Shown: positions 1-19,303 of the stretch, piece by piece
How the letters are laid out: the number at the start of each line of letters is the position of its first letter
How positions within the stretch are numbered: position 1 is the first letter of the stretch
NCBI GenBank assembly: GCA_963823495.1
Contig: CAWGLV010000001.1
Location: 1,283,878 to 1,347,877, forward strand
DNA length: 64,000 nucleotides
Direction of reading: 5' to 3'
Source: an uncultured Microthrixaceae bacterium
Lineage (GTDB): Bacteria > Actinomycetota > Acidimicrobiia > Acidimicrobiales > DATDAH01
Notes under the pieces: generated by a model
What the model was told of the DNA's origin: nothing
Seen by the model: only the letters and a program-made list of their open reading frames with translations
Databases searched by the model: none
Position numbers and translations under genes: made by a program

Positions 1-684
1 GGTCCACCCCGTCAGGAGGGTGAGGATCAGGAAGGTGCCGAGCACGGCCCCGATGCCCACCACCAGCGGGAGGAAGGCGGCGACGAGGGATCCGAACACG
101 ATGATCAGGGCGATGAAGGTGATCGGGGCGCTGAGCAGCTCGGCCTTCTGGAGGTCGGCTTCGGACTGCTCGCTGACCTGACGGGTGACCTCACCCCGCC
201 CGGTGACCGCCACCGTGAGGCCGTCCCGCTCCCCGGAGTAGGTCTCCGACAGGTCGCCGGAGATCTCGACGACCTCGGTCTCGTCGCCCTCGAGGGTCGC
301 GAACACCAGGGCCTGGGTCCCGTCCTCGCTGCGCAGCGGCGAGGCCTCGCCCAGGCCGATCGACCAGTGGGAGGTCACCGCCTCGACGTGGGGCTCGGCG
401 GCCAGGTCCTCGCCCAGGGCGACGCCCGCCTCGACGACGGCCGGGTCGTCCACATCGGCGCCGTCGGTGGTCACCACCAGGACCAGATCGGGCGTGCTGG
501 CGGGGAACTGCTCGTCGAGCCGCTCCTGGGCCTGGGTGGACTCGGCGTCGGGGTCGGCGAAGCCGCCCAGGGACAGCTTCTCGGCCACGCCGGCCCCGAA
601 CACCGCGGCGAGCACGACCGCAGCACCGGCGGTGGCGATGACGATCCAGCGGCGCAGGACGACGAAGCGGGCCAAACGTCGCAT
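1..684 (-). CDS. MMPL/RND-superfamily lipid transporter, first 228 codons (3' end runs off the window)
   Basis: My own reverse-strand translation from ATG 684-682: MRRLARFVVLRRWIVIATAGAAVVLAAVFGAGVAEKLSLGGFADPDAES...EADLQKAELLSAPITFIALIIVFGSLVAAFLPLVVGIGAVLGTF. TM1, an extracytoplasmic loop and the start of the TM bundle match MmpL-type proteins. It is missing from the ORF track because it is open at the window edge. Confidence 0.75.
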   Translation of the reverse strand, partial: MRRLARFVVLRRWIVIATAGAAVVLAAVFGAGVAEKLSLGGFADPDAESTQAQERLDEQFPASTPDLVLVVTTDGADVDDPAVVEAGVALGEDLAAEPHVEAVTSHWSIGLGEASPLRSEDGTQALVFATLEGDETEVVEISGDLSETYSGERDGLTVAVTGRGEVTRQVSEQSEADLQKAELLSAPITFIALIIVFGSLVAAFLPLVVGIGAVLGTFLILTLLTGWT

Positions 685-726
685 CGGGCAGACCCTAGGC
701 GCAGCGACCGACTACCTTCGGCGGAC

Positions 727-1149
727 GTGCGCTCCAAGCGGGAACTGACCGAGCTCATCGGGGGTGTGGACCTCTTCTCCCGCTGCACCAGGAGCGAGCT
801 GAAGACCGTCGCCCGTCACATCGAGACCGTGCGCCTCGAGCCAGGGGCCGAGCTGACCCGCCAGGGGGCGGAGGGCGACGCCTTCTTCGTGATCATCGAC
901 GGCACCGCCCGGGTGATCGTGGACGGCGAGGTGGCCGACACCCTCGGTCCGGGGCAGTACTTCGGCGAGCTGGCCCTCCTCGACGGGGCACCGCGGTCGG
1001 CCAGCGTCCACGCGGAGGACGAGGTCGAGGTGGCGGTGCTCGGCGTGCGCATGTTCCGCACCCTGCTGCGGGAGTTCCCCGAGATCAGCATCCAGTTGCT
1101 GGCCGGCCTCACCGGCGCCCTCCGCGAGGCGCGGGCGGCCGTCGACTAG
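727..1149 (+). CDS. stand-alone cyclic-nucleotide-binding (cNMP/CAP effector) domain protein
   Basis: C-terminal part of ORF 367..1149: GVDLFSRCTRSELKTVARHIETVRLEPGAELTRQGAEGDAFFVIIDGTARV...GQYFGELALLDGAPRSASV (FGELAL...RSA motif). An in-frame GTG at 727 is chosen as the start because upstream sequence overlaps the divergent MMPL gene. The start is uncertain. Confidence 0.75.
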   Translation: MRSKRELTELIGGVDLFSRCTRSELKTVARHIETVRLEPGAELTRQGAEGDAFFVIIDGTARVIVDGEVADTLGPGQYFGELALLDGAPRSASVHAEDEVEVAVLGVRMFRTLLREFPEISIQLLAGLTGALREARAAVD

Positions 1150-15900: not shown

Positions 15901-18543
15901 ACCGGGGAGTCGGGTGGCGTCGCCTACGCCGCGGCCCGGTACCCCCGCGAGGGAACGACGATCCAGGCGTTCAGCACCCAGCTCGACGACGATGAGCTCG
16001 CCGCGGGGCTCGAGGCCCTGCGTCCCCTGCTCCTCGACGTCGATCCCGGGCAGGAGGTCGTCCTCGACGTGTACGTCTGGCAGGACGCCGCCGTCGAGGA
16101 TCGGGACGCGTTGCGCGAACACATCCGCTCGGTGCTCGACGAGCGACTCGGCCCCCTGCAGCTCCGACGGGTGGTGGTCGCCATCTCGACGCCGGAGAGC
16201 GGCGCGTCGATGGCCGGGGTGATCCACCTGACCTTCCGGCCCGACGGGGAGGCCGGCTACCGCTACGAAGAACAGAGCCACGGCCTGCACCCCATGATGG
16301 CCAAGCGGCTCGAGCTCTGGCGCCTCGACAACTTCGCGATCGAGGCCGTGCCCACCCCCCCCGACATCTACCTCTTCCACGGGCGGGCCCGGGAGAACCC
16401 GCGTGATGAGCGTCTGATCGCCCTGGCCGAGGTCCGTGACCTCACCGCCCGACGTGACGAGCACGGGGTGGTCCAGCGGCTGCCGGAGTTCGAGCGGGTC
16501 CTGCGCGAGGTCGTCGGGGCCTTCCGCCGGTTCCAGGCCCGCCGGCCCGACGCCCGTCGGCTCCAGTGGAACCGTGTCTTCCTCTATGTCTGGCCACCGA
16601 TCGACCTGACCGTCGAGGACCTGACCCGCCTCGCCGAGCGGGTCGCGCCCGACACCGCCGACCTGGGCATCGAGAAGGTGCTGATCCTGGGCACGGTCAA
16701 GGACCGCGACGGGGCCATCCGCCGACAGGTGTACGACATCGCCGACGGCTCCGGCGCCGGCGTGCGCATCCACATCCGTGACCACGCCGACGAACCGCTG
16801 CGCCCCGTGGACGACTACGTCCGGAAGGTGGTGTCGCTGCGGCGGCGCGGCCTCGTCTACCCCTATGACCTCGTTCGCCTGCTCGCCCCGTCCCCCGGGG
16901 AGTCCGACGGCGACCGGCCGCCGGGCGAGTTCGTCGAGCACGACCTGGAGGGCGAGGGACTCGTCCCTGTCCAGCGCCCCCCCGGGGAGAACACCGCCAA
17001 CGTCGTCGTCGGCGTCATCAGCAACGTCACCGTGAAGCACCCCGAAGGGATGAGACGGGTCATCGTGCTGGGCGACCCGTCCCGGGGCATGGGGAGCCTG
17101 GCCGAGGCCGAGTGCCGGAGGATCGTGGCCGCGCTGGACCTGGCCGAGCAGCTCACGGTGCCTCTCGAGTGGTTCGCCGTCTCCGCCGGCGCCCTCATCT
17201 CGATGGACAGCGGCACCGAGAACATGGACTGGATCGCCGTGGTGCTGCGACGGATCATCGAGTTCACCCAGGGCGGCGGCGAGATCAACGTCGTCGTGCC
17301 CGGCATCAACGTGGGCGCCCAGCCCTACTGGAACGCCGAGGCGACCATGCTCATGCACACCCGGGGCATCCTCGTGATGACCCCCCAGGGCGCCATGGTC
17401 CTCACGGGCAAGGAGGCCCTCGACTACTCCGGCGGGGCCTCGGCCGAGGACAACCAGGGCATCGGCGGCTACGAGCGCATCATGGGCCCCAACGGCCAGG
17501 CCCAGTACTTCGCCCGCGACCTCGGCGACGCCTGCCGGATCCTGCTTCGGCACTATGACCACGCCTACGTCGCCCCGGGCGAGCGGTTCCCCCGGTCGGC
17601 CGAGACCACCGACCCCGTCGGCCGCGACGTGTGCCTGTCCCCCCACGGCGGCGACTTCGCCACCGTCGGCGACGTCTTCTCGGCCGAGGACAACCCCGAC
17701 CGCAAACGACCTTTCGAGATCCGCCGGGTGATGGCGGCCACCGTGGACCAGGACCATCCCACCCTGGAGCGGTGGTACGGCATCGAGGACGCCGAGATCG
17801 CCGTCGTGTGGGACGCCCACCTGGGCGGCCATCCGGTCTGCCTGCTCGGCGTGGAGTCCAAGAACCTGCCCCGGGTCGGGTTCGTCCCCGCCGACGGTCC
17901 CGAGCAGTGGACGGCGGGAACGCTCTTCCCGATGGGCAGCAAGAAGGTGGCGCGCGCGGTGAACGCGACCAGCGGGAACCGGCCCCTGGTCGTGCTGGCC
18001 AACCTGTCGGGCTTCGACGGCTCCCCGGAGTCACTGCGCGCCTGGCAGCTCGAGTACGGCGCCGAGATCGGCCGGGCGGTGGTGAACTTCGAGGGCCCGA
18101 TCGTCTTCTGCGTCGTGTCCCGCTACCACGGCGGGGCCTTCGTCGTCTTCTCGCGTGCCCTCAACGACAACATGGAGGTGGTGGCGGTCGAGGGCTCTCG
18201 GGCGTCGGTCATCGGCGGGGCCCCGGCGGCGGCGGTGGTGTTCACCCGCGAGGTCCGCCGCCGCACTGCTGAGGACCCCGAGCTGGTCGAGCTGGAGCGC
18301 AAGGCCGACGCCGCCGCCGGGACGCTCCGGGTCCAGCTCCGTGACGAGCTCGACCGCCGGCGCCGGGAGATCCACACGGCCAAGCTGGGCGAGGTGGCCG
18401 CCGAGTTCGATGGGATCCACACCGTCGAACGGGCCCTTCAGGTCGGTTCGCTGCAGCGGATCATCCGGCCCGAGGAGCTCCGGCCGTATCTGGTCGATGC
18501 CGTCGAGCGGGGGATCGCCCGTGAGCTCGAGCGGAGGGGCTGA
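12952..18543 (+). CDS. single-chain multidomain acetyl/acyl-CoA carboxylase (BC-BCCP-central-CT), eukaryote-type architecture
   Basis: ORF 12877..18543. BC: [42 protein letters not shown]: VIEAMKMET (biotinyl Lys codon 14878-14880). Central region resembles the ACC_central C-terminus ([21 protein letters not shown]...[17 protein letters not shown]). CT: [10 protein letters not shown]...[50 protein letters not shown]. Start is uncertain: TTG 12952, or ATG 12989 if a G is missing. Confidence 0.9.
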
Positions 18544-19303
18544 GCCCAGCGGTGCGCCGCTGGTCCGCTTCCACGCGGCCGGCCAGGCCGACGTCCCGGA
18601 CCACGACGACTGGCTGACCCCGCCGGAGGCGGAGCGGCTCAACGGCATGCGCTACACCAAGCGACGCGACGAGGCCCGCCTCGGCCGGTGGACCGCCAAG
18701 CACGCCGTCGCCCGCGCCCTGGGCCGGCCGCTGGCGTCCGCGGCGCTGGCCGCAGTGGTGATCCGCAACGCCTCGGACGGGGCACCCGAGGTGTTCGTCG
18801 GTGACGAGCCCGCGGGCATCTCCATCTCGATGACCGATCGGGCGGGCTGGGGCGTGTGCACCGTGGCCACCGGAGCGGGAGCGCTGGGGTGTGATCTCGA
18901 GCTCGTCGAGCCTCGGACCGAGCGGTTCGTCGCCGACTACTTCACCCCGGCGGAGCGGGCACTGGTCGCCGCCGCGCCCGGAGACCACGCGCTGCTGGCC
19001 AACCTCATCTGGTCGGCCAAGGAGAGCGCCCTCAAGGTGCTGCGCGAGGGGCTCCGTCTGGACACCCGCTCCGTCGAAGTCGAGCTCCGGGACGAGCCCG
19101 GACCGGGCTGGCGGCGGCTGGCGGTCTCCACCACCGCGGGCCGGCGGTTCCCCGGCTGGTGGCGGCGCTTCGATGACTTCGTGATGACGGCGTGTGCCGA
19201 GGTCGCGACCGGCGCCCCCCTGGCCCTGGACACCCCGTCTCCTCTGGAGAGCGCGGTACCAGCCCACACCTGGATGGCCCAACCGGTCCGCCGCACTCGG
19301 TAG
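18521..19303 (+). CDS. Sfp-type 4'-phosphopantetheinyl transferase
   Basis: ORF 18155..19303. WLTPPEAERLNGMRYTKRRDEARLGRWTAKHAVARAL; ISISMTDRAGWGVC; GCDLELVE; WSAKESALKVLREGL. An in-frame GTG at 18521 overlaps the carboxylase stop (18541-18543). Confidence 0.85.
   Translation: MSSSGGAEPSGAPLVRFHAAGQADVPDHDDWLTPPEAERLNGMRYTKRRDEARLGRWTAKHAVARALGRPLASAALAAVVIRNASDGAPEVFVGDEPAGISISMTDRAGWGVCTVATGAGALGCDLELVEPRTERFVADYFTPAERALVAAAPGDHALLANLIWSAKESALKVLREGLRLDTRSVEVELRDEPGPGWRRLAVSTTAGRRFPGWWRRFDDFVMTACAEVATGAPLALDTPSPLESAVPAHTWMAQPVRRTR

Follow-up and report, generated by a model that had tools for sequence, protein, structure and literature searches.

Which genes of a densely packed lipid or polyketide locus in an uncultured Microthrixaceae bacterium belong together, and what could they make? 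The locus lies at the start of a 64,000-nucleotide stretch of contig CAWGLV010000001.1 (the whole of which we call the window) and is built around a large PfaA-like synthase. A preliminary description, made from the letters of this DNA, had presented seven closely packed genes as one self-contained ensemble supplying its own malonyl-CoA and carrier activation, with candidate redox partners and candidate export. We find that four of these genes form a conserved unit, encoding an acyl-CoA dehydrogenase (ACAD), the synthase, a single-chain acetyl-CoA carboxylase (ACC) and a 4'-phosphopantetheinyl transferase (PPTase). The carrier domains of the synthase have Thr at the predicted phosphopantetheine site, and the ACAD is a candidate for the enoyl reductase (ER) that the synthase lacks.

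The gene map (Table 1) is based on a listing of open reading frames (ORFs), Pfam and codon-position GC analysis of the window. Relatives of the locus were found with a profile of the ketoreductase-dehydratase (KR-DH) part of the synthase in a collection in which each species is represented by one genome. The profile confirmed at least 549 related stretches in roughly ten phyla, and 80 of these together with two from a protein look-up, 82 loci in all, were examined. They belong to Acidimicrobiales/Ilumatobacter, many Terriglobia, KSB1, Gemmatimonadaceae, Thermoanaerobaculia, Myxococcota, Verrucomicrobiia, Chlamydiota, Mycobacteriales, Pseudonocardiaceae and Bacteroidota. Among the matches listed, the Acidimicrobiales/Ilumatobacter loci are the closest (59–71% identity), and the synthase family is particularly frequent among Acidobacteriota of soil and peat and among Acidimicrobiia.

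Conservation of the neighbours was assessed by tblastn of the window proteins against the 82 loci, 60 of which were eligible on the upstream side and 66 on the downstream side. The ACAD gene lies immediately 5' of the synthase in all 60 loci with enough DNA, at a median gap of 106 nucleotides. On the 3' side, the synthase is followed by ACC and then PPTase in 48 of the 66 eligible loci, by PPTase alone in 17, and by ACC and an opposite-strand PPTase in one. A PPTase is therefore downstream in every eligible locus (65 on the strand of the synthase, one on the other), and an ACC stands between the two in 49 of 66. Homologues of the MMPL, cNMP-binding and CrtI-like proteins upstream, and of the small membrane, DUF1918 and CBS proteins downstream, were absent from the flanks of all 82 loci, even at E<1e-2. 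Because the gene order is kept across these loci while the other neighbours have no counterparts, the conserved unit is ACAD-synthase-(ACC)-PPTase, which forms a four-gene operon here.

The close packing described for seven genes holds for these four, which are all co-directional, but not for the CrtI-like, cNMP-binding and MMPL genes. The ACAD stop at 4639 and the synthase ATG at 4702 were confirmed, as was the overlap of the ACC stop (18541-18543) by the in-frame PPTase GTG at 18521. This overlap amounts to 23 nucleotides; a 260-amino-acid protein identical to the predicted PPTase is on record, and an alternative in-frame ATG is found at 18497. A promoter and terminator scan over positions 1–20000 was uninformative at the G+C content of the window, which is about 72%.

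The domain order previously read from the synthase, two ketosynthases (KS) flanking an acyltransferase (AT), three acyl carrier protein (ACP) repeats, KR and DH, was borne out by Pfam and by repeat analysis. The catalytic motifs of KS1, AT, KS2, KR and DH are intact and conserved, and full-length homologues of 2800–3100 amino acids share 55–80% identity. The HAFH motif noted earlier in the AT is present alongside GHSLGE and is kept in 108 of 110 homologues. KS2 has an N-terminal insertion of about 220 amino acids relative to FabF; its Cys, His and His residues align in register with those of FabF structures, and across the family the corresponding motifs are N[AS]ACA[ST] and SHETYT (the latter in 110 of 110). 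Since this triad is both aligned with FabF and conserved in the family, the position that has been called 'CLF' is predicted to hold a true ketosynthase.

The absence of a PfaD-type ER and of a FabA-type DH had also been remarked upon. A tblastn search with the PfaD/NMO-type ER domain across the whole 64-kb window found nothing, and the Pfam output of the scanned ORFs contains PKS_DH_N and PS-DH but no FabA-type DH, a family for which no dedicated search was made. Nor do the scanned ORFs (1 to approximately 29.7 kb) include, with the same limit as to FabA, the partners pfaB (AT), pfaC (KS-CLF with two FabA-type DH domains) or pfaD.

By NCBIfam ranking, taken as a proxy for a KS phylogeny, the best match of the synthase is TIGR02813 (PfaA), in agreement with the PfaA-like character first proposed. 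However, the repaired 2762-amino-acid protein scores 923.3 bits against a cutoff of 1010.1, so that by the NCBI criterion it is classed as PfaA-like and not as PfaA. It resembles PfaA and the pfaABCDE systems in its KS-MAT start, tandem ACPs with Ala/Pro linkers, KR, polyketide synthase (PKS)-type DH, dedicated PPTase and candidate flavin ER in trans. It differs in the additional in-cis KS, the linked single-chain ACC and an ACAD in place of the NMO-type ER, and its carriers bear Thr (DTVKQAE) where those of PfaA bear Ser (DSIKRVE). PksE, of enediyne and polyene pathways, has the order KS-AT-ACP-KR-DH-PPTase with one ACP, which is of the Ser type, and is not known to carry a second KS. It is likewise an iterative type I enzyme without an ER domain, and some relatives of the window synthase share its fused PPTase; the second KS and the linked ACAD and ACC set the window apart from it by architecture, and enediyne accessory genes are absent from the window.

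The closest precedent is in the survey by Shulse and Allen (PLoS One 2011, 6:e20146; PMC3098273), in which pfa-like clusters were sorted into Types A–T. Type R, from Koribacter versatilis, Solibacter usitatus, Elusimicrobium minutum and Roseiflexus (Acidobacteria, Elusimicrobia and Chloroflexi), comprises one pfaA homologue with the order KS-MAT-'CLF'-ACP(3–6)-KR followed by a PPTase, with an ACC between them in Koribacter, and its product was uncharacterised (PMC3098273). The window has the same domain order, with three ACPs, a PPTase downstream and an ACC between. In contrast, the survey is silent on an upstream ACAD, on Etf, on Thr at the carrier site and on a C-terminal DH, and terms the second KS a CLF (PMC3098273); in the window this KS keeps Cys-His-His. 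Judged by domain and gene order, the core of the cluster is the already catalogued Type R and the window is a new, Acidimicrobiia-like member of it, which extends Type R to Acidimicrobiia-like Actinomycetota. Loci in Korobacteraceae metagenome-assembled genomes (MAGs) have the same synteny, with 54–57% identity over KR-DH, and syntenic homologues also occur in Terriglobales MAGs.

In the literature since 2011 we found no later characterisation or product of Type R, and searches on hglE-KS in Acidobacteria and on bacterial homomeric ACC linked to PKS returned nothing relevant beyond PMC3098273. The combination had at first not been recognised as a characterised pathway. We found no such pathway either, but the architecture itself had been catalogued. 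What we could not find described is the set of variations on the polyunsaturated fatty acid (PUFA) synthase theme: a second KS in cis, carriers with Thr, and an ACAD standing in the place of the ER.

The carboxylase resembles the eukaryote-type single-chain enzyme. It carries biotin carboxylase, BCCP, ACC_central and carboxyltransferase domains on one chain of about 1850 amino acids and matches yeast ACC (5csk) in the PDB; unlike eukaryotic ACC (about 2200 amino acids) it is bacterial, shorter and encoded within a synthase operon. It is presumed from its domains to be an acetyl-CoA carboxylase making malonyl-CoA. At two of the related loci (L083 and L084), genes for a biotin-protein ligase and BioY stand beside the single-chain ACC.

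The three ACP repeats are approximately 96–100% identical at the DNA level and are joined by Ala/Pro linkers. Their DLGIDT motif aligns by phmmer onto DLGADS of solved ACPs, which places Thr at the predicted phosphopantetheine site; the codons are ACG at 9610-9612, 9928-9930 and 10239-10241. The Ser of canonical carriers (DSL or DSIK) is found in none of the three. To our knowledge, characterised carrier proteins carry Ser at this site. Thr occupies it in all 505 motifs of 116 protein homologues and in all 268 motifs of the 82 genomic loci, or 773 of 773 in total.

A search with one ACP domain against 1.84 billion representatives returned 715 proteins at E<=1e-30. Among the best 150 of these 715, 127 have only Thr and 21 only Ser, and local domain mapping places the Thr arrays in KS-AT-KS-ACP-KR-DH proteins and the Ser arrays (DSIKRVE) mostly in canonical PfaA-type KS-AT-ACP-KR proteins without KS2. 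One exception among the Ser arrays, P0425 (locus L086), has the order KS-AT-KS-ACP(Ser)x5-KR-DH-PPTase, with both KS2 and a fused PPTase. In P0450, a 534-amino-acid metagenomic fragment, one DLGVDSIKQAE repeat is followed by two Thr (DTVKQAE) repeats in a single array. These two proteins resemble transitional forms linking Ser-type with Thr-type arrays.

The AlphaFold2 (AF2) model of the PPTase (pLDDT 93.5) matches AASDHPPT, MuPPT, Sfp and PptT by Foldseek at TM 0.6–0.73, and the GCDLE (Mg-binding) and WSAKESALK (catalytic) motifs are invariant. By sequence, the protein does not significantly match any Sfp-type chain in the PDB; on the model it is of Sfp-type (type II) fold, with both diagnostic motifs. 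The PPTase is fused to the C-terminus of the synthase in about nine relatives, and Pfam finds no other carrier domains in the synthase. Because of these fusions, and because the Thr carriers are the only carriers present, the enzyme can be tied to them. We regard attachment of phosphopantetheine to the carrier Thr as probable. At the place of the SH motif of Sfp-type enzymes, the stand-alone PPTases of the family invariably read ISMTDR. This motif was considered as a signature of Thr carriers and rejected, as PPTases fused to Thr-type synthases keep SH, and so does one Ser-type fusion.

The ACAD keeps the catalytic Glu of its family (IYEGTSEI), which phmmer aligns with that of MCAD (206 bits), and has a C-terminal helical domain of about 170 amino acids. 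Its AF2 model (pLDDT 86.5, pTM 0.90) is matched over the full length by Foldseek at TM 0.76–0.79 to Thermus 2z1q, B. anthracis 3owa, human VLCAD and ACAD9. In this model the protein is of the VLCAD/ACAD9 type, with a core holding the catalytic Glu and an extra helical C-terminal domain, a shape that suggests a long chain. Bcd-EtfAB and CarC-CarDE, as well as the two-domain VLCAD/ACAD9 enzymes, have the same ACAD fold and catalytic Glu. The window differs from Bcd-EtfAB and CarC-CarDE in having no Etf gene; in Acidobacteriota loci, EtfBA stands beside the ACAD. EtfB-EtfA lies directly upstream of the ACAD gene in 44 loci, all Acidobacteriota-type (L014–L082; for example L018:413-2184), and the EtfA of these loci is closest in the PDB to 5ol2, the bifurcating Bcd-Etf of C. 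difficile.

The distribution of ER domains bears on what the ACAD may do. In about seven Thr-type relatives an NMO (PfaD/FabK-type ER) domain is fused N-terminal to KS1 (confirmed by Pfam for P0394), that is, in the place ahead of KS1 which the ACAD gene occupies here. No ACAD was found within 6–8 kb of the NMO-fused synthases at the three loci inspected (L083, which is P0394, at 8001-20060; L084; and L085). Either a fused ER or an ACAD gene ahead of KS1, and not both in any locus inspected, is the pattern expected of non-orthologous displacement. Because the inspected NMO-fused loci lack an ACAD, we lean towards the ACAD being a trans-acting ER of the synthase, fed by electron-transfer flavoprotein (ETF).

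Further redox genes were seen near related loci. A FixABCX-like Etf operon is located on the opposite strand of L083, 4 kb upstream. In 12 Acidobacteriota-type loci (L038, L040, L048, L051, L055, L066, L069, L071, L072, L074, L075 and L081) the PPTase is followed by a gene for a GMC-family FAD oxidoreductase of about 560 amino acids, which is absent from the window and may be a lineage-specific tailoring enzyme.

Taken together, these features are somewhat better explained than not by a self-contained iterative lipid synthase with Thr carriers and the ACAD as ER in trans. The single-chain carboxylase would make malonyl-CoA, which the HAFH-type AT would load onto the three tandem carriers, once the sequence-divergent Sfp-type PPTase had placed phosphopantetheine on their Thr. 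KS1 and KS2, on one polypeptide and with intact motifs, would elongate the chain iteratively, and KR and the PKS-type DH would turn each beta-keto group into a trans-2-enoyl thioester. The VLCAD-shaped ACAD together with ETF may then supply the enoyl reduction missing from the synthase, as the distribution of the genes suggests. The outcome would be a type-I fatty-acid-like factory yielding a long, largely reduced acyl chain, and as a member of Type R the operon falls among the PUFA-synthase-like 'secondary lipid' synthases. That the whole clade uses O-phosphopantetheinyl-threonine made by a cognate PPTase, with an ACAD (plus ETF) as ER in exchange for the PfaD/FabK-type enzyme, we put at an even chance.

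Several points weigh against this scheme. ACADs normally oxidise acyl-CoA, and reduction needs a low-potential electron donor. Etf genes are absent from both the window and the Acidimicrobiia loci, and the Acidobacteriota EtfB is closest in the PDB to 1o94, the non-bifurcating ETF of M. methylotrophus. The complementarity of ACAD and NMO is drawn from the three NMO-fused loci that were inspected. The examined loci share no conserved thioesterase or acyltransferase that could release the chain. As regards the carriers, AcpS is not known to modify E. coli ACP S36T. No report of phosphopantetheinylation of Thr was found in the literature, S36T is in use as a mutation of the phosphopantetheine site in E. 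coli ACP (PMC13343975), and no PPTase residue was found to covary with Ser or Thr carriers. Finally, the synthase gene contains a frameshift, and if this is genuine, the synthase of this genome would be split or dead.

The foremost alternative is that growth of the chain involves no enoyl reduction. The synthase would then act as an enediyne/polyene-type iterative PKS giving a conjugated polyene or hydroxy-enoyl chain, and the ACAD would be an oxidative tailoring enzyme handing its electrons to ETF, with desaturation of an acyl-CoA after release, or preparation of a 2-enoyl starter, as its possible task. The missing ER domain fits this view, as do the MCAD-type catalytic base kept by the ACAD, the likeness of EtfB to a non-bifurcating ETF, and the VLCAD-like shape, which would suit a long-chain acyl-CoA substrate; moreover, ACADs ordinarily pass electrons to ETF. 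However, the Thr-type relatives that carry a fused PfaD-type ER and no ACAD suggest the same role for the two enzymes, and a dedicated ACC points to high flux and hence to a bulk lipid more than a pigment, although this second argument is a weak one. We consider the polyene product unlikely, and continue to favour enoyl reduction by the ACAD.

A second alternative concerns the integrity of the synthase gene. In the given sequence its frame is broken at approximately 10051-10055, between ACP2 and ACP3, which the preliminary description had overlooked, and the synthase falls in two overlapping ORFs in different frames (4702-10503 and 10140-12989). At 10051..10055 the sequence has C4 (GCGCCCC^GGCC) where C5 (GCGCCCCCGGCC) follows ACP1 and ACP3, a loss of one base. 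The spacing of the ACP repeats is 318 and then 311 nucleotides, which the alignment resolves into this C5/C4 difference and a 6-nucleotide linker difference, and addition of one C yields a continuous synthase of 2762 amino acids. A similar irregularity is seen at the start of the ACC gene. The synthase stop (TGA, 12987-12989) does overlap an ATG at 12989 as ATGA, as reported, but this ATG does not share the frame of the biotin-carboxylase domain beginning at 13006. In-frame alternatives are GTG at 12931 and TTG at 12952, leaving the start codon uncertain, and lengthening the G5 run at 12994-12998 by one G would give a short ACC N-terminus like that of relatives (e.g. MNFSRIAVVNRGE).

In L001, at 80% identity the closest relative, the ACP region is not in frame either, and some 10 of 120 synthase homologues are truncated within this region. 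On these grounds we read both the synthase frameshift and the difference in the G run at the ACC start as homopolymer sequencing errors, and are largely confident in doing so. If the frameshift were genuine, the operon would be decaying or would work through two polypeptides. The given sequence does carry the frameshift, and the window synthase is not among the proteins of the collection, where the ACAD and PPTase of the same 3.83-Mb contig are present at 100% identity; its absence would fit a gene that the deposited annotation flags as a pseudogene. Against decay or a split gene, the codon-position GC bias remains strong before and after the break, every catalytic motif is intact, the indel sits in a homopolymer inside near-identical repeats, and a second homopolymer indel may be present at the ACC start. 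Together with the out-of-frame and truncated relatives, this makes a pseudogene or split gene improbable.

A third alternative is that the Thr repeats are not phosphopantetheinylated at Thr, being structural, decoys or modified elsewhere, and that the PPTase serves another carrier. The want of a literature precedent and the use of S36T as a site mutant (PMC13343975) speak for it. However, the repeats are the only carrier domains of the synthase, their motif is invariant in 773 instances, 3–6 of them stand in tandem, an arrangement shared with PUFA synthases, the PPTase invariably neighbours the synthase or is fused to it, and a mixed Ser/Thr array exists in P0450. We judge this alternative to be quite improbable, and retain Thr as the probable attachment site.

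MmpL proteins export PKS-derived lipids in mycobacteria, and this general knowledge, the physical adjacency of the genes and the divergent arrangement of the CrtI-like and ACAD genes over approximately 60–105 nucleotides are what would favour the full seven-gene ensemble, with the CrtI-like protein as a second redox partner and the MMPL protein as lipid exporter, but it is highly improbable given genes on opposite strands, no MMPL, cNMP-binding, CrtI-like or small membrane homologue at any of the 82 loci, a gpsA gene at that place in L001, and a CrtI-like protein that scores 140 bits against TIGR02734 (crtI_fam), under its cutoff of 238. The CrtI-like, cNMP-binding and MMPL genes are thus neighbours unrelated to the synthase unit. 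An MmpL gene conserved beside the synthase, as for export of mycobacterial-type PKS lipids, was found in none of the 82 loci. Of the functions ascribed to the ensemble, malonyl supply and carrier activation stand, and export does not, and the abundant envelope or storage lipid suggested at first is a hypothetical product; of the two proposed redox partners, the ACAD is plausible in trans and the CrtI-like protein, on the other strand and without conserved counterparts, is not. The co-conservation of neighbours that had been proposed as a check was found for ACAD, ACC and PPTase and failed for three of the seven genes.

All three upstream proteins described earlier exist, although the CrtI-like and MMPL genes are on the minus strand. 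For the cNMP-binding protein a start at 367 had been given; the gene probably starts near 727. A plus-strand ORF at 1410-2978 was considered as the CrtI-like gene and discarded, having no Pfam match and the wrong phase of third-position GC; the true gene is on the minus strand. In L001, the gene directly 5' of the ACAD (7352-8275) is gpsA, for an NAD-dependent glycerol-3-phosphate dehydrogenase.

Downstream of the PPTase the window encodes a small membrane protein, a DUF1918 protein and a CBS protein, followed by a coxMSLG-type cluster. This CO-dehydrogenase/xanthine-dehydrogenase-type cluster (20973-29675) is unrelated to the synthase operon. Just past coxG, at 25378-26809, are five successive plus-strand genes for small paralogues of 72–120 amino acids, each with a hydrophobic stretch near its N-terminus and none with a Pfam match. 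The possibility that these short coding segments are one frameshift-broken gene was ruled out; they are five separate small membrane-protein paralogues. Further on, a minus-strand frame of 1228 amino acids (37571-41257) appears by eye to encode a multi-pass membrane transporter with an apolipoprotein N-acyltransferase-like C-terminal part. Its first 300 or so residues appear out of frame or of low complexity, and the region has an unusually strong skew of A over T (0.31 at 38–40 kb).

Table 1. Positions of the conserved four-gene unit, the predicted domains of its synthase and other genes in the window
Feature	Position	Strand	Basis and remarks
VLCAD-type acyl-CoA dehydrogenase (ACAD), 554 aa	2975..4639	+	Pfam ACAD N, M and C domains
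PfaA-like megasynthase, 2762 aa after one-frameshift repair	4702..12989	+	Pfam, TIGR02813, motifs
KS1	4702-6141	+	
AT	6442-7401	+	GHSLGE and HAFH motifs
KS2 ('CLF' of Shulse and Allen)	7702-9381	+	Cys (NAACAS), His (SHETYT), His (KGFTGH)
Three ACP repeats	9424-9723, 9742-10041, 10053-10352	+	
KR	10851-11960	+	
PKS-type DH	12111-12986	+	
Single-chain carboxylase (ACC), ~1850 aa: biotin carboxylase-BCCP-ACC_central-carboxyltransferase	12989..18543	+	Pfam
Sfp-type 4'-phosphopantetheinyl transferase (PPTase), 260 aa	18521..19303	+	Pfam ACPS
MMPL transporter, N-terminal 228 aa, gene leaves window edge	1..684	-	Pfam MMPL PF03176, 67 bits; non-conserved
Small cNMP-binding protein	727..1149	+	Pfam cNMP_binding; non-conserved neighbour
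Amine-oxidase/CrtI-like FAD protein	1203..2870/2915	-	Pfam Amino_oxidase; non-conserved neighbour, divergent from ACAD
cox-type FAD subunit	20973-21848		
cox-type 2Fe-2S subunit	21850-22401		
cox-type Mo subunit	ends 24782		
CoxG	24793-25374		
CoxE-like VWA protein	27620-28759	-	
AAA ATPase	28755-29675	-	

The synthase family is very widespread, with at least 549 stretches in some ten phyla, and we found no report of its product although fifteen years have passed since it entered the catalogue. Within it, an ACAD seems to replace the ER of PUFA-type synthases, and the invariant Thr site challenges the assumption that phosphopantetheine goes on Ser. If Thr is indeed the point of attachment, this would be an undescribed natural variant of carrier-protein modification, and the Thr carrier and its PPTase could be a naturally orthogonal pair usable for tagging. 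The operon is compact and provides for substrate, activation and synthesis by itself, a property that suits it to heterologous expression. Naming the lipid could explain an abundant, as yet unassigned part of soil bacterial lipidomes.

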